This document shows, one piece after another, positions 6,941 through 15,493 of a stretch of DNA of 64,000 bases. Position 1 is the stretch's first letter, and the number at the start of each line of letters is the position of its first letter. Location: contig CANPZV010000002.1 of assembly GCA_947589285.1 (NCBI GenBank), forward strand, positions 619-64,618, given 5' to 3'. This stretch comes from an uncultured Clostridia bacterium. Its GTDB lineage: Bacteria > Bacillota > Clostridia > Christensenellales > Borkfalkiaceae. Below the pieces are notes generated by a model. It was given only the letters and a program-made list of their open reading frames with translations, did no database searches and was not told the DNA's origin. A program made the position numbers and the translations under genes.

Positions 6941-7663
6941 TCAGCCGATCTTGACGAGGTCGCTTTCGTCAAGCCCCTTGAGGAAATCGGGGATCTCGTA
7001 CCCGTCCCTGACCTCTTCCTTGGGCTGAGGTTTCGCATCCCGCACGCGTTCGGGAAGTTTCTCTCCTCCCCCTTCCCCGTCGCCATCGTCGTCGGTATCG
7101 TCCTCGCGGGCATAGAGGTAGCTGTCCCTCTCGTCGATGCTCGCGTTGCGGATGGCGTCCATCAATTCATCGTAGTCGGGAAGGTCCTCCAAGGTGTTGA
7201 GTTTGAAGCGTTTGAGGAATTCATCCGTCGTCGCAAAGAGAATGGGATGGCCGACGGCGTCCTTCCGCCCGCACGGATAGATGAGTTTGAGGTCGAGCAG
7301 CACGTTCACAGCATAGTCGCTGTTGTTGCCGCGGAGCAACTCGATCTCGCTCCTCGTGATCGGCTGTTTATAGGCGATGATCGCGGCGCATTCGAGGACG
7401 GTGCGCGTGAGTTCCTTCTGGCGGATCGGGTTGAGTACGGCCGCGACCTCATCTTTATAGAGCGGGTTAGTCGCGAGCTGGGCCTTCTTGTTGAATTCGA
7501 GGAAGCGGATCCCGCAGCCCTCCCCGTATTTTTCTTTGAGTTCGTCGATGGCCCGCCTGATCTCGCCCTCCGTGAGGTTGAGTTTTTCCGCAATATCCGC
7601 AAGCGGCACGGGTTTCCCCGAGGCAAACAGCACGGCCTCAATTATATTCGTCAATTGTTCCAA
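6941..7663 (-). CDS. scpB: Segregation and condensation protein B
   Basis: IIEAVLFASGKPVPLADIAEKL..., winged-helix ScpB signature. Follows scpA. Confidence 0.9.
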   Translation of the reverse strand: MEQLTNIIEAVLFASGKPVPLADIAEKLNLTEGEIRRAIDELKEKYGEGCGIRFLEFNKKAQLATNPLYKDEVAAVLNPIRQKELTRTVLECAAIIAYKQPITRSEIELLRGNNSDYAVNVLLDLKLIYPCGRKDAVGHPILFATTDEFLKRFKLNTLEDLPDYDELMDAIRNASIDERDSYLYAREDDTDDDGDGEGGGEKLPERVRDAKPQPKEEVRDGYEIPDFLKGLDESDLVKIG

Positions 7664-8435
7664 AGGGTTCTCCCTCCTTTCTGTCGGGGTTGAGCGAAAT
7701 GACGATCTCCCCGAATGCTTCGTTCTGCTTTACGCACAAAAATTGAAGTTTCAACAGCTCCAACATCGCCTGAAAGGTCGTCACGATCTCGGGCTTCGTG
7801 TAATCTTCGGTGAAGAGGTCCTCAAACTTGATCGTTCCGCCCCCTTCCACGCTCTCGAGAATGAATGTCGCCTTCTGTTCGACGGTGAACTCGTCGCGCG
7901 GGATCTCCCTCACCTCATGCTCGGCTCTCTTGCCCTCGCGCTGGAGCATCAATGCCTGAAAGGCTCCGATGAGGCCGTCGAGCGTCAGGGAATCGAGGTT
8001 AAAAACCGTCTTTGTCTCGCCGACGTCCTTGTCCGGCTCCTTGAAATAGTAGCCGACAGTCTCAAGCTCCTTCAGCTTGGCCGCCTCTTCCTTGATGCGC
8101 TTATACTCCTCAAGGGCTTGGATGAATTCGTCGCGGGTGTTTTCCTGCTCCTCCTGATACTCGGGATCGTCCAAAAGGTTGGGGACGAGGGACTGCCCCT
8201 TGATCTTGATGATCGTCGCGGCGATGTTGAGATAGTCGCTCATCTTGTCAACGTCGATGTACGGAAGCCCCTTCATATAGTCGAGGAACTGCTCGGTGAC
8301 CTGCGAGACAAAGATATCCTTTATCTCGATCTCATTCTTGTTGATGAGGAAGAGCAACAGATCCATCGGACCTTCAAAGTTGCTCAAAATCGTCGTATAA
8401 TCGACGATAGACTCAAATTTATCGCGGTCTACCAT
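7638..8435 (-). CDS. scpA: Segregation and condensation protein A
   Basis: Internal ATG 8435 (MVDRDKF...FEGPMDLLLFLI) gives a 265-aa kleisin. The longer ORF to 8672 overlaps the upstream gene. Confidence 0.85.
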   Translation of the reverse strand: MVDRDKFESIVDYTTILSNFEGPMDLLLFLINKNEIEIKDIFVSQVTEQFLDYMKGLPYIDVDKMSDYLNIAATIIKIKGQSLVPNLLDDPEYQEEQENTRDEFIQALEEYKRIKEEAAKLKELETVGYYFKEPDKDVGETKTVFNLDSLTLDGLIGAFQALMLQREGKRAEHEVREIPRDEFTVEQKATFILESVEGGGTIKFEDLFTEDYTKPEIVTTFQAMLELLKLQFLCVKQNEAFGEIVISLNPDRKEGEPFGTIDEYN

Positions 8436-9308: not shown

Positions 9309-10454
9309 TCAATTCCAATTTTTCGCGGCCTCTCGGAAGGCGTCCCACCATGTGAAGGCGGGCGCGTCGTCCATGGAGAGGAGCCTCGTCCGTCCGATCT
9401 CGACGCCGTTCGAAAAGAGGATGGCCTCTCCCGCGGCGTCTCCCTTACAGACGGGTGCGTTCAAGCCCTCGATCGCATATTCGACGGAGCAATCGGCGTT
9501 CTCCCCTTTTTTGCCGAAAACGGAGAGCGATTTTTCGGCGCAGAGCCTCATTTCCTTGCACTTGCTCCCCAAGACCGCGGCTCTTTCTCCGATCTCCTCC
9601 CCCGCTTTCAGGACAGTGCGGCACTCATACCCGTTGAAGGCCTCGTCAAAGAGCGAAGAGACGATCGCGTTTCTCTCTTTGGAATTTTCCGCGCCGATGA
9701 CGACGCTGACGATCCTCATATCCCCGCGCTTGGCGGTGGCGGCAAGGCAGGAACCCGCCTCGTTCGTATAGCCCGTCTTGCCCCCGTCGCATCCGTTGTA
9801 GAAGCGGACGAGCTTGTTCGTATTCGTCATGAGGATCTTCCTCCCGTCGGGATGCTCAAAGTCCTCCGTCCAGATCTTTGTGTATTCAAAGTACTTCTCA
9901 TGTTTCAGAAGCTCACACAGCATGACGGAGACGTCTTTGGCGCAGGAGTACTGCGGCTCCTTCGGAAGCCCCGTGCAGTTTGCAAAAAGCGTATTTTCCG
10001 CGCCGAGTTCCTTGGCCCGCGCGTTCATTCTGTCGATAAAGGCGGTCTCGCTCCCCGCGACCCGCTCGGCAATGGCGACGCAGGAATCGTTCGCAGAACA
10101 CACGACGATCGATTTCAGAAGCGATTCGACCGTATAGGAAAGCCCCGCGGCGAGAAAGACCTGGGATCCCCCCATTCCGGCCGCATTTTCGCTGACGGTG
10201 ACCGTCTCACCGTAATCAAGTTCCCCGCGGTCGGCCGCCTCAAAGGAGAGGAGCAACGTCATGATCTTGCACATGCTCGCGATCGGGAGACGCTTTGTCT
10301 CCTCCTTTGCGTAGATGACCGTCCCCGTCCCGTAGTCGCACGAATAGGCCGATTTGCAGTCAGGCTCGGTCTCGAGCGCACGGACAGTCACGCCGTTTCC
10401 CATCATAAAGATCCCCGCCGCAAGAAGCGCGGCAGCGCAAACAATTTTCTTCAT
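9309..10454 (-). CDS. D-alanyl-D-alanine carboxypeptidase (DacB/DacF-like)
   Basis: SxxK (ASMCK), SxN (SAND), KTG (KTGYT). Signal peptide MKKIVCAAALLAAG. ATG 10454, with an upstream GTG at 10460 also possible. Confidence 0.85.
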   Translation of the reverse strand: MKKIVCAAALLAAGIFMMGNGVTVRALETEPDCKSAYSCDYGTGTVIYAKEETKRLPIASMCKIMTLLLSFEAADRGELDYGETVTVSENAAGMGGSQVFLAAGLSYTVESLLKSIVVCSANDSCVAIAERVAGSETAFIDRMNARAKELGAENTLFANCTGLPKEPQYSCAKDVSVMLCELLKHEKYFEYTKIWTEDFEHPDGRKILMTNTNKLVRFYNGCDGGKTGYTNEAGSCLAATAKRGDMRIVSVVIGAENSKERNAIVSSLFDEAFNGYECRTVLKAGEEIGERAAVLGSKCKEMRLCAEKSLSVFGKKGENADCSVEYAIEGLNAPVCKGDAAGEAILFSNGVEIGRTRLLSMDDAPAFTWWDAFREAAKNWN

Positions 10455-10488
10455 ATCCACAGTTTGTGACAGGAGACGGAAAATAAAC

Positions 10489-11085
10489 TTACAAAATTTT
10501 ACCTATCGGGTGAAAGAGTGCGAGGAGAAGGATCATCTCGAAAAGACAGACCGCGATGACAAGGCCAAGCAGGATCAGAGCGTCGCGCAGGAGGTCGAGA
10601 AAATCGCAGGCGCAAAAACAGAAGGAAAAAGCCCGCGCAAACGCTAGCGTCGCCGCAAAGACGAGAATGGCGTCGGCGCAGAGATGAACGGGCAGATAGA
10701 GAACAAAGACGATCATCGCCCCCGTTACCCCGTAATATTCGAAAAAAACGTACAGGCACCCGCCGCAGGTGAAGGCGCGGTAGGCGAGGACGGCGAGCGG
10801 AAGAAGGAGCGCGATCGGGTGAAAACTTCCGATGAGGATGAGAAGGAGCAGAAGCGCGCATCCCCCCGTCCGTTGGAGAAAGATGAGAAAGACGTTCGTA
10901 TCGGAGAAGCAGACGTCGGTCAAAAAGCCGTCGCAGATGGAGAGATGATAGTCATAGACGGCGGACGTCGTGACAAAGCATGCCCCGAGGATCAAAAAGA
11001 CGAGAACGAGGAGCGAGAGAAAGATCAAGGTCTTTTTCCGCGAAAAGACGCTCCCGAAAAAATTTTGCAAAAAAAATCGGTCCAT
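10489..11085 (-). CDS. Polytopic membrane protein, SpoIIM-like
   Basis: 198 aa with about 5 TM segments. Size and topology resemble stage II sporulation protein M. No diagnostic motif. Confidence 0.4.
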   Translation of the reverse strand: MDRFFLQNFFGSVFSRKKTLIFLSLLVLVFLILGACFVTTSAVYDYHLSICDGFLTDVCFSDTNVFLIFLQRTGGCALLLLLILIGSFHPIALLLPLAVLAYRAFTCGGCLYVFFEYYGVTGAMIVFVLYLPVHLCADAILVFAATLAFARAFSFCFCACDFLDLLRDALILLGLVIAVCLFEMILLLALFHPIGKIL

Positions 11086-11122
11086 ACTCTATGATATGAA
11101 CCGTTTTTCGCGATGATTCAGC

Positions 11123-11190
11123 TTAATCTCTCAGCATATTCTCGATCCCGATGCCATATCCCCTCGTCGGATCGTTCAAAAACACATGGG
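11123..11190 (-). pseudogene. Orphan 3' fragment of spoIVB (duplicate of the gene's last ~21 codons)
   Basis: 11135-11190 is 53/56 identical to 12738-12793. Translates in frame as HVFLNDPTRGYGIGIENMLRD*, against the intact gene's ...HVFLNDPTRGYGIGIENMIKN*. Confidence 0.8.
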
Positions 11191-11206
11191 AAATTGTCAA
11201 TATGTT

Positions 11207-12310
11207 CTAAGTGCTTTCGCAAATGATTTTTCTGATATTTTCTAAGATACCCATAGTTTTCCCCTTTGCGAGACCGACATATGCCGCCAAATCGAGTAAA
11301 TCCGTGTCTGTGGGGTTTGTCTTGCCCAAAACGGTCATCTCGTGTTCGGGCTTATCGGGAGTTTTCGTGATATCATAGGCGGGAGAGAGACGATACCCGC
11401 CGAGCGTTTCATCATAGAGGAATGAGATGTTTTTCCCATGGTCGTCCTTGTTCCCGTAAAGCACATTGAATGTCATGCGGGCGAACGCCTCATAGAGGTC
11501 GCGCTTGTCGGCGCAAATGTTTTCGATGACTTGGAAGAGGTGAACATAGTCAAGATTCGGGATCCTATGCGTCGTCTCGAGGAGCGAGGACAGCGACACG
11601 ACGTGTATCCTCCTCCCCTCTTTGCGGTCGAAGCGTTTTGCACCGAAGTACCCGCTGTACTTCTTTGACGGAAACAGTTTGAATTCGTTGACGTCGAGCC
11701 GACACTTTTTCGCCGCCGCATTCGCCTCATATTCCCGAAGTCCGACATCGGGCGGGTCGATCCTGCAGGGGAATTTGACGATCCACTCTCCCCCGTCGAT
11801 TTTCAGGTGCGCCTTCGGTCGTGCGCCGCCGCTCGAGCCGCCCGCAAGATACAGCCCGTCCAAGTCCCCGACCGCTTTTTCCGCATCATTCAGAACTGCG
11901 TTTGCCTCTTCCGCAAGCTCTTCTAAATCGAACTGAGAATCAATCGTTTCAACTGCCTGCGTCGGTTCGTAGTTGAGTCCGCCAAGACCGTTTCCGCCGA
12001 TGAGAGATAGCTTAGTGAGAGGATTGAGTTTCTCATAGTTGACGCCCTTCTTCGCGCACATCCTGCTTACGAGAAGTTCCCCCCAACCGTCGGGAAGTGA
12101 ATCATGAAAGACGCCGAAGAGGCCCCCAAAGTTGTCCTTTCGGTCGAGAAAGACGTCTCCCCTGAGCGGCAGAGAGAACGGGGAGACGGAAAAGCCGTCT
12201 TTCAGCCATTCGGCGTCGTATTGAAAGGCGATCCCCTCTTCCACGACCGCAAGGTAGCCCACAAGGCGACCGTTGTATTTGACGACCGATTTTTTTACTT
12301 CGCCGATCAT
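11207..12310 (-). CDS. hipA: HipA-family serine/threonine kinase toxin (type II TA)
   Basis: 367 aa. N-terminal coupling domain (SPFSLPL...GVFHDSLPDGWG) and C-terminal kinase core (GGSSGGARPKAH, NKDDHGKNISF). Overlaps the upstream HTH gene by 4 nt. Visibly lower GC than the flanks. Confidence 0.85.
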   Translation of the reverse strand: MIGEVKKSVVKYNGRLVGYLAVVEEGIAFQYDAEWLKDGFSVSPFSLPLRGDVFLDRKDNFGGLFGVFHDSLPDGWGELLVSRMCAKKGVNYEKLNPLTKLSLIGGNGLGGLNYEPTQAVETIDSQFDLEELAEEANAVLNDAEKAVGDLDGLYLAGGSSGGARPKAHLKIDGGEWIVKFPCRIDPPDVGLREYEANAAAKKCRLDVNEFKLFPSKKYSGYFGAKRFDRKEGRRIHVVSLSSLLETTHRIPNLDYVHLFQVIENICADKRDLYEAFARMTFNVLYGNKDDHGKNISFLYDETLGGYRLSPAYDITKTPDKPEHEMTVLGKTNPTDTDLLDLAAYVGLAKGKTMGILENIRKIICEST

Positions 12311-12603
12311 TTCTTGTACTCCTTCACACTCAAAATGATCTCGTGCTTGAAGAGTTCTTCAAAGTCGGAAAGGCACCCAATGGCATTCGCCAGCTTGACG
12401 AGAGAACGGAGCGAGATCTCCCCCGTCCGCTCGAATCTTCGGATCGAGGCATAGGACACGCCCGACGTTTGCGCAAGAGTTTTTTGTGAAAGTCTCCGCT
12501 CCTTGCGCCTCATCTTAAATCGCTCCACCATATTTTGGATCGTCGTTTTCTCTGTGACTGTCGGAATGAAATCGCCGATATCAAAACTTTTCATATCGCT
12601 CAT
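12307..12603 (-). CDS. hipB: XRE-family HTH antitoxin (HipB-like)
   Basis: LSQKTLAQTSGVSYASIRRFERTG helix-turn-helix. Coupled to hipA. True start may be ATG 12594. Confidence 0.75.
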   Translation of the reverse strand: MSDMKSFDIGDFIPTVTEKTTIQNMVERFKMRRKERRLSQKTLAQTSGVSYASIRRFERTGEISLRSLVKLANAIGCLSDFEELFKHEIILSVKEYKK

Positions 12604-12632
12604 ATTTTAGCAGATTATTGATGTTTTGTCAA
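12604..12632 (-). promoter_or_regulatory. Sigma-A-type promoter of hipBA abutting the first ATG
   Basis: Minus strand TTGACA (12632-12627), 17-nt spacer, TAAAAT (12609-12604). ATG 12603 is adjacent and the second ATG 12594 is 9 nt away. Confidence 0.5.
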
Positions 12633-12672
12633 GGAATTGCGAAAATATTAGTCGGAAAAGTTTAACATATTT

Positions 12673-12704
12673 TTCTTAAAAGAAAAGACCCTCGTCGGAG
12701 GATC
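12673..12704 (-). terminator. Intrinsic terminator after spoIVB
   Basis: Stem GAUCCUC/GAGGGUC (12704-12698 / 12693-12687), 4-nt loop, UUUUCUUUU tail. Confidence 0.55.
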
Positions 12705-12725
12705 TTCTTTGAAATCATTGGGTTT

Positions 12726-13736
12726 TCAATTTTTTATCATATTCTCGATCCCGATGCCATAACCGCGCGTCGGATCGTTCAAAAACACATGGGTGACCGC
12801 GCCGATGAGCTTTCCGTTCTGCACGATGGGGCTTCCGCTCATGCCCTGAACGATGCCGCCCGTCTCGGAGATCAGTTTCTCATCCGTCACCTTGATGACA
12901 AAATTCTTGTTCTCCTTGTTCGTCTCGTCCACTTTTGCGATGCTGATCTCATATTTTTGGGGGCATACGCCGTCGATCGTGGAGTAGATGACGGCCTTCC
13001 CGATCGTCGCCTCGCTCAGGGGCGCGATGCCGATCGTCTCACTGTGGGAGAAGTCGAACCCCTTCTCGAACTTGCCGTATAGTCCCGTTTGCTTGACCTG
13101 TTCGGCCTTGGCGATCTTTTTGTCGTTCAGAAACAGTCCTCTGAGTTCCCCCGCCTTTCCGCGTTTGCCCTTGTTGACGCCGATGACGCTGCAAAGATAG
13201 ACCTTGGGGTCGGAGATCTCGAGGGATTGGTTGTTCTCGTCGCACACGGCGTGCCCCAGCGAGCCGAATTCGAGCGTGTCCTTTTTGATGTAAGTCACCG
13301 TTCCGATCCCCGTCAGGGTATCGCGGATGAGGACGCCGATCTTGTATTTTCCGCTCTTTTTGTCCTTGACGGGCCGAATGTTGACCTCCGCCCTCTCTCC
13401 GTCCCGCTTGATCGTGAACGTGATCTCCTTGCCGCCGCACTTTTCGAGTGCGCGGTTGAGATCGTCGATCGTCTTGATCTGAATGCCGTCGGCGGCGCAG
13501 ATGAGGTCCCCGATCTTGACGCCGACCTCGTCCGCAGGGCGGTGGATGCCGTCCTCCGCGCCGACTTCGCTCAGGCCGATGACCTCCGTCCCTCCCGCCG
13601 AGAGCGAAAAGCCCGCCGTCATTCCGCCGAGATAATATTCATCAGAAGCGGCATTGGCCCTGAACGCCGCCCCGCCAAAAAGAGTGAGGACGACAAAGAG
13701 CGCGAATGCCGCGAAAAAAAATTTCAGCTTGCGCAT
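12726..13736 (-). CDS. spoIVB: SpoIVB peptidase (S55) with PDZ domain
   Basis: 336 aa with signal anchor. PDZ region (GVKIGDLICAADGIQI) and catalytic region GIVQGMSGSPIV. Conserved position next to recN. Confidence 0.9.
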   Translation of the reverse strand: MRKLKFFFAAFALFVVLTLFGGAAFRANAASDEYYLGGMTAGFSLSAGGTEVIGLSEVGAEDGIHRPADEVGVKIGDLICAADGIQIKTIDDLNRALEKCGGKEITFTIKRDGERAEVNIRPVKDKKSGKYKIGVLIRDTLTGIGTVTYIKKDTLEFGSLGHAVCDENNQSLEISDPKVYLCSVIGVNKGKRGKAGELRGLFLNDKKIAKAEQVKQTGLYGKFEKGFDFSHSETIGIAPLSEATIGKAVIYSTIDGVCPQKYEISIAKVDETNKENKNFVIKVTDEKLISETGGIVQGMSGSPIVQNGKLIGAVTHVFLNDPTRGYGIGIENMIKN

Positions 13737-13801: not shown

Positions 13802-15493
13802 TTAGAGGGATTTTTTGTAACCTTCCGCTTCCTTCATGAGTTCTTCGGCATGGCGGAGCGCGATCTCGCCCGCGTCGCCGCCGATGAGACGAGCGATCTC
13901 CCCCGTCCTTGCCTCGCCCTCAAGGAGAGAAATATGCGTGAGCGTTCTACCCCCCTGCTCCGACTTTTCGATGAGGAAGTTCCTGTCGGCAAAGGACGCG
14001 ATGCGGGCAAGATGCGAGACGGCGATGATCTGGGTATTCCTCGCGATCCTGCAAAATTTTTCACCGACCACCCTTGCCGTCTTTCCGCCGATCCCCGCGT
14101 CGATCTCGTCGAAGATGTACGTCCCGATCCCGCCGACCGCGGACATCTGGGCTTTGACGGCGAGCATGAAGCGGGACATCTCGCCCCCGCTGATGATCTT
14201 CCCAAGCTCTTTGAGGGGTTCCCCCTTGTTCGCAGAAAAGAGAAAAGTGACCCCGCCAAGCCCCTCCGACGTCGCTTTCCCGACGTCCTCGCGGCTGTAA
14301 TCGGAGAATTCAATGGTGAAATTTGCCGAGGTGATGTTGAGTTCGGAGAGTTCCCGCGTGACATTGCGGCAAAATTGCGCGGCCGCCGACTTCCTCGCTT
14401 CGGTGAGCTTCAAGCATGCGGCAAAGAGCTTTTCGTCCGCCCTGCCAAGCTCCCCGATCAATTTTTCATACCGCTCCGCGCTGTTTTCGAGGAGAGCGCA
14501 CTCCTCCTTCGCTCTTTCGAGATAACTCAGGGCCGCTTCGATGCTGCCGCCGTACTTTTTCTTGATGGTTTTGAGTTCATCCAAGCGGTTTTCCACCCGC
14601 TCGGCCTCTCTCTCGTCCATATCGAGCGCGTCAAGCTCCCCTTCGACCTCGCCTCCGACGTCCTCAAGTTCTGCGGCCGCATTGTCGAGCCGTTCGGCAA
14701 GGGCGGCGTAACTTTCGGCATACTTTGCGACGGAGCGAAGGGCGCGGGCGGCCCCGCGGAGCGAATCGGTGCAGCCGCCGTCGGAGAGAAGAAACTCCCG
14801 CGACTCCGAAAGGCCGTCTTTGATCTTCTCGGCATTGCGGAACTTCTCCCGCGCGGCGAGAAGGGTCTCCTCCTCCCCCTCCTTTAACTCTGCGCGCTCC
14901 AGCTCGTCGATCTGGAAGCGTAGCACATCGAGCCGTCTGCTCCGCTCCCCCTCGTCCCCGCCGAGAAGTTTCAGCCCCTCGAGGATGCCTTTCCGCTCGG
15001 AAAGGCGGGCGCGGACCTCCTCCTTTGCGGCCGCCGCAGGCTCCCCCGCAACTGCGTCGAGAAGGCGGAGCTGGTTTGCTTCCTTCAATAAATAGAAATG
15101 CTCGCTCTGCCCGTGGACGTCCACGAGGAGCGAGGTTATGCGCCTGAGCATGGCCGCCGTGACGGGGCAGCCGTTCAATTTTAAGGTCCCCTTTCCCTCC
15201 GCAGTGAGTTTCCTCGTGACGACGACGGAATCCTCCGCTTCGACGTCGAGTTCGCTCAAGATAGCGGCGATGGCGGGATCCCGAAAGGAAAATTCCGCAC
15301 TGACGAGGCATTCGCTCTCGCCGTACCGCACCATGCTCTTGTCGGCCTTCGCGCCGAGGACAAAATCGATGCACTCCAAAATCACCGATTTCCCCGCGCC
15401 CGTCTCCCCGGACAGGACATTCAGCCCCTCGGAAAATTCGAGATCGGCCCTCTCAATGAGCGCGACATTGCGGATCGTGAGACTTTTCAGCAT
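13802..15493 (-). CDS. recN: DNA repair protein RecN
   Basis: MLKSLTIRNVALIE...LSGETGAGKS Walker A, long coiled coil, C-terminal SGGEMSR signature. Confidence 0.95.
   Translation of the reverse strand: MLKSLTIRNVALIERADLEFSEGLNVLSGETGAGKSVILECIDFVLGAKADKSMVRYGESECLVSAEFSFRDPAIAAILSELDVEAEDSVVVTRKLTAEGKGTLKLNGCPVTAAMLRRITSLLVDVHGQSEHFYLLKEANQLRLLDAVAGEPAAAAKEEVRARLSERKGILEGLKLLGGDEGERSRRLDVLRFQIDELERAELKEGEEETLLAAREKFRNAEKIKDGLSESREFLLSDGGCTDSLRGAARALRSVAKYAESYAALAERLDNAAAELEDVGGEVEGELDALDMDEREAERVENRLDELKTIKKKYGGSIEAALSYLERAKEECALLENSAERYEKLIGELGRADEKLFAACLKLTEARKSAAAQFCRNVTRELSELNITSANFTIEFSDYSREDVGKATSEGLGGVTFLFSANKGEPLKELGKIISGGEMSRFMLAVKAQMSAVGGIGTYIFDEIDAGIGGKTARVVGEKFCRIARNTQIIAVSHLARIASFADRNFLIEKSEQGGRTLTHISLLEGEARTGEIARLIGGDAGEIALRHAEELMKEAEGYKKSL

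Follow-up and report, generated by a model that had tools for sequence, protein, structure and literature searches.

A 64-kb window of DNA from an uncultured Clostridia bacterium (64,000 nt of contig CANPZV010000002.1, the whole stretch analyzed here) carries, directly behind the sporulation protease gene spoIVB, a 1.6-kb block in which the toxin-antitoxin (TA) operon hipBA lies between two copies of the spoIVB 3' end. This block is very likely a relic without a recombinase, sitting in the attachment (att) site of an integrative and conjugative element (ICE) family that uses serine recombinases. Its anatomy, read along the minus strand on which all genes of the locus lie, is an attB-like site that forms the real end of spoIVB, the cargo, a putative attR, and the native gene end. 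In other genomes this site is taken up by a phd-parE cassette, or by an ICE together with an array of cassettes. A preliminary description of the window had proposed a decayed integrative element without a recombinase, and this was essentially right, as ICEs with two recombinases have been found at the same nucleotide position.

The direct repeat that brackets hipBA spans 11125-11190 and 12728-12793 (66 nt, 89% identity by repeat finder), with a core at 11135-11190 and 12738-12793 in which 53 of 56 nt are identical. A degenerate search recovers exactly two copies in the window, with 0 expected from 100 shuffles. Copy 2 is the true end of spoIVB, reading ..ENMIKN-stop, whereas copy 1 is an orphan that reads HVFLNDPTRGYGIGIENMLRD-stop. 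The three mismatches between them, CGC/AGG (Arg) and GGT/GGA (Gly), are all synonymous. Only hipB and hipA lie between the copies, with no integration or transfer genes, and tblastn detects no serine recombinase homologue in the 64-kb window. The 56-nt repeat, its silent mismatches, and the lack of a recombinase had been read from the sequence at the outset, as had the terminator, consensus promoter, hipB, and 367-aa hipA between the repeats, which RNAfold, a promoter match at 11/12 consensus positions, and Pfam now bear out.

Which of the two gene ends is the native one? The comparison set consists of 15 related loci (L numbers; WIN denotes the window) gathered by a SpoIVB search and a genome scan from rabbit and sheep gut Clostridia, nearly all of them rabbit-gut ("Lapin") uncultured organisms. 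All of the genomes are metagenome-assembled genomes (MAGs), and the state of each site was established by tblastn and direct reading. The recN-spoIVB synteny is kept in all relatives. In five of them (L012, L017, L018, L021, and L022) the site is unoccupied: spoIVB ends in ENML..-stop and the gene for a membrane protein follows directly, 35-56 nt on, just as had been predicted for relatives without hipBA. The stop codon is followed by ~25 nt and then by a conserved hairpin terminator (GGTTCATAT..ATATGGACC plus a T run), which is present in 15/15 loci folded (the window and 14 relatives) and shows compensatory stem changes in L018, L019, and L021. The orphan keeps the same layout, its tail (LRD-stop), spacer, and hairpin matching those of L012, L017, and L018. 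On this evidence the orphan is the displaced native spoIVB end, and the IKN-stop tail and terminator now joined to spoIVB are foreign and cassette-borne. The joined terminator is conserved in L010, L014, and L013 and absent at unoccupied sites, and the tail ATGATAAAAAATTGA is common to the cassette-bearing L013, L014, and L024, with a close variant, ATGATAGAAAATTGA, in L010. The event was an insertion and not a replication slip, as first argued.

Altogether, six site states occur among the relatives: unoccupied, hipBA, hipBA remnant, other cassette, unrelated insert, and truncated spoIVB. The hipBA cassette with its orphan is found in the window, L010, and L014. L013 (identical to L005) gave a first impression of an empty site, which was rejected; positions 7012-7252 hold a deletion remnant that keeps the terminator, an apparently intact promoter, 12 hipB codons, and the orphan tail. 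At the identical point of spoIVB, L011 (~7011-7843), L015 (~7011-7866), L016, and L024 carry a phd-parE cassette, with a remnant in L020. It encodes a Phd/YefM antitoxin and a ParE/RelE toxin, has its own terminator and promoter, and is followed by an orphan spoIVB end; the gene-end repeat in these four loci runs through the stop codon. In both cassette types the edges are identical, T/CCCATGT at the orphan versus A/CCCATGT at the real copy (here and below, a slash marks a junction). L019 has an unrelated 468-bp insert (6949-7416) with a small open reading frame (ORF) and its own terminator in the spacer between spoIVB and the membrane gene. A duplicated arrangement shared by all relatives had been named as the outcome that would speak against an insertion; unoccupied sites, a different cassette, and deletion remnants were seen instead. 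Exact-protein look-ups with the membrane protein and HipA of the window retrieved only the same arrangement from ENA and Logan assemblies, with no strain-level empty site.

In the remaining state, seen in L009 and L023, spoIVB is truncated at residue 318, and it is here that the ICEs come into view. The gene runs ..GTCACCCATGT into conserved foreign sequence, TTACTCTATAATATGGATACCGG, with the break point ..CCCATGT/TTACTCTATAATATGG (L009:10941 and L023:~6940) ~20 codons before the spoIVB end. The gene end is not restored, and conjugation genes follow, including one for a VirB4/TraC-like ATPase. The junction peptide IIWIPA recurs in 3 database SpoIVB entries (P0090, P0104, and P0120). The other ICE end was found in L009's MAG, on L030, by following a HipA homologue. 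In L030, L073, and L074-76, two tandem serine recombinases of 566-582 aa (Resolvase, Recombinase, and Zn_ribbon domains) are followed by ..TATAACTTATTGACAYTYW/C(C/T)CA(T/C)GT and a displaced spoIVB end. The right junction is ..GATAACTTATTGACATTCT/CCCATGTATTTATCAACGACCC..TAG in L073 (right end GATAACTTATTGACATTCT/CCCATGT) and ..TATAACTTATTGACATTTA/CTCACGTATTCATAAACGACCC..TGA in L074-76 (right end TATAACTTATTGACATTTA/CTCACGT). In L074 the displaced end leads into the native hairpin, the membrane gene, dacB, an Orn/DAP decarboxylase gene, M50, and scpAB, which is the synteny of the window. The ICE family thus appears to target ..GTCACCCATGT/GTTTTTGAAC.., ~60 nt before the spoIVB stop codon. No report of spoIVB as an ICE target was found in the literature searched.

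The best named match of the ICE recombinase is NCBIfam CcrB, but the score of 98 bits is far from the cutoff (900), and the enzyme is best regarded as a generic large serine recombinase. A metagenome scan with it returned relatives at <=45% identity only, none with spoIVB-end fragments. Behind the two full-length recombinases there is also a 107-aa resolvase-domain fragment (L074:7723-8046; L075 and L076:4026-4349), perhaps what is left of a third recombinase, given that streptococcal ICEs with recombinase triplets are known (PMC4701971). What would docking mean for the host? The spoIVB gene of B. subtilis is expressed in the forespore, and excision in the mother cell, as with skin and SPbeta, therefore could not rescue a copy broken by an ICE. 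Lineages with such a copy may be sporulation defective or may need another solution.

The same ICE terminus is recognizable in the window. The junction there reads TAGAACATATTGACAATTT/CCCATGTGTTTTTGAACGATCC, an ICE arm that matches at 16/19 positions in a fixed register and directly abuts the orphan; in L030 the element terminus is ..TTATAACTTATTGACAC and its right end aligns with the window arm as TATAACTTATTGACAC. Since the arm is the same, in the same register, and abuts the orphan, the orphan junction is most simply interpreted as an attR composed of the ICE right arm AACATATTGACAATTT, the core CCCATGT, and the displaced native end. The arm homology continues, more weakly, into the last ~30 nt of hipA (to ~11235). 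The phd-parE cassettes carry a more diverged arm, AAAACTTAATGCCCTTTT/CCCATGT.

Cassettes of both types meet in L030, where an array extends from the ICE end to the membrane gene. It begins with the two tandem large serine recombinases, the element terminus, a phd-parE cassette, further genes, and hipBA. Next come a 75-nt relic (a recombinase-gene tail plus the ICE terminus) abutting a first orphan end with terminator, and then ABC-transporter genes, a second orphan end with terminator, a two-component system, the membrane gene, and dacB. The array also includes genes for a PHP protein, a 384-aa HipA_C-like protein, and a 1,167-aa protein, a 91-aa ORF, and a duplicated fragment from the 5' end of the PHP gene.

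Have the cassettes moved between hosts? HipA homologues at 83-93% identity occupy at least four genomic contexts, and a search for the same module away from this site found it in L026/L030, L027/28, and L029, with HipA at 83-88% identity. The shared module begins ~65 nt beyond the stop codon of spoIVB and ends with that of hipA. Between WIN and L010 the synonymous divergence (dS, Nei-Gojobori) of hipA/hipB is 0.63/0.45, that of the flanks 0.49-0.59; since the cassette matches its flanks, vertical descent is indicated for this pair. Between either of them and L014, hipA/hipB dS is 0.53-0.74 and that of the flanks 1.16-1.6, a semi-quantitative contrast, as dS above 1 is saturated, and nucleotide identity rises from ~0.72 outside to ~0.85 inside, across ~12.8-11.2 kb. 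The cassette being less diverged than its flanks, it appears to have crossed species into the same site. In a neighbor-joining tree of RecN plus DacB (no bootstrap), hipBA, phd-parE, remnant, and unoccupied states are interleaved. A recent transfer of phd-parE, expected by analogy with hipBA, was rejected because its dS shows the same saturation as the flanks do; this cassette seems simply to be old at the locus.

The two repeat copies have a history of their own. Within a genome, 2-5 positions separate the real core from the orphan core (five genomes), whereas orthologous cores differ at 9-11 positions between genomes, even in the sister pair WIN/L010, although the duplication predates the split of that pair. 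The last 12 nt of the repeat and everything beyond stay type specific. Cores that are alike within genomes and divergent between them indicate concerted evolution, with gene conversion acting over the 56 homologous nt, and RecA-type conversion between the copies would explain why their differences are mostly silent. The three mismatches are not simply alleles of two lineages, as had been proposed: the 56-nt core has been homogenized within genomes, and distinct alleles persist only in the last 12 nt. Orphans decay in the relatives, with a Leu-to-Arg change in L010, a 1-nt deletion in L014, a 7-nt deletion in L016, and little left in L024. In L015 and L016 the functional allele has the AGG-GGA version, and the silent-only differences of the window are most likely variants that passed through, or derive from, a functional copy. 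The silent-only signal is weak: ~21% of single changes in the stretch would be synonymous, and two silent codon events give p~0.04.

Gene conversion also bears on another account of the repeats, in which hipBA is an autonomous mini-element that makes a long target duplication, or entered a tandem duplication or replication slip later. Direct repeats do flank the cassette, and the similarity of the copies within a genome superficially resembles a fresh target duplication. A duplication older than the WIN/L010 split could have kept near-identical copies only through gene conversion, however, and the tails of the copies are different alleles with different downstream sequence. Moreover, the cassette has neither transposase nor recombinase, and the hipBA module of L026, L027, and L029 lies there without duplications of its neighbors. 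Transposon target duplication and replication slip were both considered and rejected, and this account as a whole is largely refuted already, retaining hardly any probability.

Recombination through the conserved gene end could instead be made to do all of the work. The preliminary description had offered homologous capture as an alternative, in which the cassette spreads by RecA recombination alone, via the spoIVB end and flanking genes, from a duplication that was an old accident. Conservation of the 56-nt core is high among the species, gene conversion shows clearly that it recombines, and crossovers within the repeats or close to them would fit the transfer into L014. Capture alone leaves unexplained the ICE right-terminal arm abutting the orphan, the identical T/CCCATGT edge of two unrelated cassettes, the ICEs inserted at the same nucleotides, and the array in L030, and it is very improbable.

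How, then, could a relic in an ICE attachment site have come to carry a second gene end? The cassette would have arisen from ICE traffic at the spoIVB site, and two routes can be envisaged. (i) Accretion and cis-mobilization have been defined for cis-mobilizable elements (CIMEs) (PMC5704250). An ICE would excise via attL and a distal attR, carrying along the displaced gene end, terminator, and cargo; the composite would integrate in a new host, from which the ICE would later excise alone. The product would be B/B'(foreign)-terminator-cargo-P/B'(native). (ii) A spoIVB gene broken by an ICE might be repaired by recombination with foreign DNA, with addiction forcing the retention of the TA genes. 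TA genes would survive because their loss is selected against. Both cassette types at the site are TA operons, in keeping with the view that an element loses its addiction modules last.

Several points weigh against this interpretation. Simple integration by serine recombinases produces repeats of only 2-8 bp and disrupts the target gene (PMC4701971), as in L009, so that the 56-69-nt duplication requires an extra step that has not been observed. To its left the cassette is bounded by a complete attB-like gene end, not by a canonical attL (B+P'). No free circular cassette, and no ICE with a left end that restores the gene, was found among the loci examined. Between the hipA 3' tail and the ICE end, homology is clear over the 16-19-nt arm, weaker upstream, and weaker still in L010 and L014. 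L009 and L030 belong to the same MAG and their contiguity is inferred; recombinase activity, excision, and toxicity are predictions from MAG sequences. The semi-quantitative dS contrast and the unbootstrapped tree described above count here as well.

The first of these points would disappear if a single ICE had decayed in situ and its left end had itself carried the spoIVB 3' end and terminator, that is, a gene-restoring attP. The conjugation genes and the recombinase genes would have been lost through internal deletions, with hipBA left between the restoring end and attR, and neither accretion nor repair would be needed. Restoration of the target is common among elements that enter useful genes, as is established for tyrosine-integrase ICEs and for the staphylococcal cassette chromosome (SCC) at rlmH. 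Each cassette type at spoIVB begins with a full gene end and its own distinct terminator, and the right side has the look of a bona fide attR. The preliminary description had also suggested that the element brings a replacement end, and in one respect it was correct, as the end joined to spoIVB came with the cassette; the ICEs actually seen, those of L009 and L023, break the gene. These left ends, along with the IIWIPA junction proteins, are the only ones observed, and they leave spoIVB unrestored. In addition, a P' half-site nearly identical to B' would be expected to blur the distinction between attP and attB on which the directionality of a serine integrase depends. Decay of a restoring ICE is unlikely, and a recombinase-less relic left by ICE traffic is the preferred interpretation.

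What does the cargo encode? HipA matches PF13657 (E=9e-16) and PF07804 (E=7e-43), both above cutoffs, and combines a coupling domain at the N terminus with a kinase core, whose GNKDDHGKN and SPAYD motifs align with the catalytic motifs of HipT/HipA structures (E ~1e-6, a distant relationship). The hipB gene, encoding a helix-turn-helix (HTH) protein, lies upstream in the same orientation and under the one promoter, its stop overlapping the hipA start by 4 nt (ATGA), and the pair thus has the makeup of a type II HipBA system. HipA would be a kinase toxin that arrests growth, and HipB would neutralize it and repress the consensus promoter. Because the -10 box TAAAAT directly abuts the first hipB ATG, HipB probably starts at the second ATG, at 12594, 9 nt downstream, giving the 95 aa called in relatives. 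With this second ATG the mRNA would have no leader or almost none. A conserved inverted repeat, CTAATATTTT ... AAAATATKAG, brackets the promoter, and both are conserved in every context of the module (WIN, L010, L013, L026, L027, and L029), which suggests a candidate HipB operator and autoregulation. PADLOC gave no meaningful defense-system assignment. In WIN and L010 the TAG stop of hipA is in frame with the orphan (..CEST-stop-NILTIS-HVFLNDPTRGYGIGIENMLRD-stop, window 11123-11209). Translational read-through from hipA into the orphan was considered and rejected, since the L014 orphan carries a frameshift and the L016 orphan has lost part of its sequence; the shared frame is probably due to chance.

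The coordinates of these features are collected in Table 1. The SpoIVB protein scores 299.6 bits against NCBIfam spore_IV_B, slightly below the cutoff of 305. The terminator region of the cassette (12671-12726, 56 nt) folds at -14 kcal/mol; a simple consensus terminator scan missed the structure and RNAfold recovered it. The cassette had been described as visibly AT rich. It is so at 49.7% GC versus 56.5% for the window, but the difference is modest and owed mostly to non-coding DNA at 31-41% GC, with a hipA third-position GC content (GC3) of 0.65 compared with a window ORF mean of 0.72 (sd 0.076). The membrane-protein gene always adjoins spoIVB and dacB in the clade. Its product, previously called SpoIIM-like, has no Pfam or NCBIfam match, and that name is unsupported. 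The native terminator hairpin and T run overlap the annotated ATG of this ORF, before which there is no Shine-Dalgarno sequence, so that either its start or its mode of expression is doubtful.

Table 1. Features of the spoIVB-hipBA locus (window positions) and the cassette array of a relative
Feature	Position	Strand	Remarks
recN	13802-15493	minus	
spoIVB	12726-13736	minus	Intact, 336 aa; PDZ and Peptidase_S55 (Pfam E=3e-68); last 22 codons are repeat copy 2
Repeat copy 2, attB-like site	12728-12793	minus	Core CCCATGT at 12787-12793; coding end HVFLNDPTRGYGIGIENM; cassette-type tail IKN-stop
Intrinsic terminator of spoIVB, cassette-borne	12678-12704	minus	GATCCTC-CGAC-GAGGGTC, then TTTTCTTTT
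hipBA promoter	12604-12632	minus	TTGACA-17-TAAAAT, extended -10 TG
hipB	12307-12603	minus	Predicted XRE-type HTH antitoxin; Pfam HTH_3 E=4e-9
hipA	11207-12310	minus	Predicted HipA-family Ser/Thr kinase toxin, 367 aa; Couple_hipA and HipA_C
Putative relic of ICE right terminus (P arm)	11191-11206	minus	AACATATTGACAATTT, directly abutting core CCCATGT
Repeat copy 1 (orphan)	11123-11190	minus	Core CCCATGT at 11184-11190, then HVFLNDPTRGYGIGIENMLRD-stop; stop codon 11123-11125
Native spoIVB hairpin terminator	11066-11103	minus	CGGTTCATAT-CATAGA-GTATGGACCG, then T run
Polytopic membrane protein, 198 aa	10489-11085	minus	Marks native right flank of site
D-Ala-D-Ala carboxypeptidase, dacB-like	9309-10460	minus	
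L030 array	L030:1-21101		GCA_947625695.1, contig CANQPO010000001.1; between ICE end and membrane gene

If the interpretation as a relic is correct, it supplies a mechanistic origin for "orphan" hipBA genes otherwise annotated as ordinary chromosomal ones: they would be the surviving addiction module at an ICE site. In uncultured gut Clostridia of rabbit and sheep, spoIVB would also become recognized as a target used by a family of serine-recombinase ICEs. The locus offers a natural example of cassette turnover at one site, involving hipBA, phd-parE, ABC transporter genes, ICEs, remnants, and empty sites, and an example of concerted evolution in a 56-nt coding repeat. For annotation, a duplicated gene end together with the arm TTATTGACA could serve as a signature of such relics, and ICE-broken spoIVB alleles may mark lineages with altered sporulation. 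A more far-reaching possibility, though a doubtful one, is an SCC-like "cassette chromosome" at spoIVB, where ICEs dock in a forespore gene and their recombinases shuffle recombinase-less cassettes, for the most part TA operons, between species. Cassettes with a captured 3' end would then bring back an intact spoIVB and supply a new docking site as well, TA modules would be selfish place-holders that force any repair or excision to keep the TA genes, and occupancy by an ICE without a restoring end would toggle sporulation competence.

How does the locus compare with known systems? As a TA pair, it resembles the type II systems HipBA of E. coli and HipBST in having an HTH antitoxin gene that overlaps the gene for a HipA-family kinase and a strong promoter open to autoregulation. 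It differs in that its HipA is short, at 367 aa, and distant from the solved HipA/HipT structures. Its position at the edge of an integrative element recalls addiction modules carried on such elements, of which sgiAT of SGI1 is an example cited in PMC5704250. An integron cassette was considered and rejected, as the repeats reproduce the coding end of spoIVB instead of attC, and there is no adjacent tyrosine integrase.

Sporulation genes are known to host intervening elements, such as skin in sigK, SPbeta in spsM, gin in gerE, and yin in yabG (PMC5595907, PMC10747680). These, too, are serine-recombinase elements in sporulation genes, and the ICE-broken spoIVB of L009 and L023 may be compared with them. 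A skin-type split gene was rejected for the window itself, where spoIVB is a complete 336-aa ORF; it is split only in those two relatives. Nor would the mother-cell-only excision of the known cases restore spoIVB. The serine-integrase ICEs of Firmicutes, which include Tn5397- and Tn1549-like elements and streptococcal ICEs (surveyed in PMC4701971), are closer to the elements of L009, L023, L073, and L074. These fit the pattern of site-specific insertion inside protein-coding genes, tandem recombinases at the element end facing the target gene, and very short shared cores. The window differs in being a relic with a long gene-end duplication, which such ICEs alone do not make.

SCC elements, comprising SCCmec and the ccr-less pseudo-SCC elements, occupy the 3' end of rlmH/orfX in staphylococci. 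Like the system described here, they involve paired large serine recombinases, integration near the 3' end of a conserved gene that stays intact, and composite arrays in which repeats of the integration site stand between cassettes, some of which lack recombinases; two copies of the site occur in the window, and L030 has further copies between its cassettes. The differences are as follows. (i) The ICE recombinases, as their CcrB scores indicate, are not Ccr orthologues. (ii) The recombinase-bearing elements are conjugative and break their target, a sporulation protease gene. (iii) The repeats are 56-69 nt long, versus ~15-18 nt in SCC.

Together with the SCC arrays, the closest parallel is found in the CIMEs and in tandem accretion at ICE att sites. 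An example from Streptococcus thermophilus is given by ICESt1/ICESt3-related elements, which lie at the 3' end of fda (Pavlovic 2004; Bellanger 2011; reviewed in PMC5704250). Like a CIME, the window cassette is a remnant without recombinase or transfer genes, bounded by att-like copies that include the 3' end of a protein-coding target gene. Cognate ICEs occupy the same nucleotides in L009, L023, L073, and L074, cassettes and ICE stand in tandem in the L030 array, and there is evidence of movement between hosts. The right flank corresponds to an attR; the left flank is an attB-like complete gene end in place of an attL. Two further differences are that the cognate ICEs use large serine recombinases instead of tyrosine integrases and that the cargo is a single TA operon, for whose mobilization the evidence is indirect. 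The type of relic is already known, and the locus is a clear illustration of how TA genes build up at ICE docking sites.

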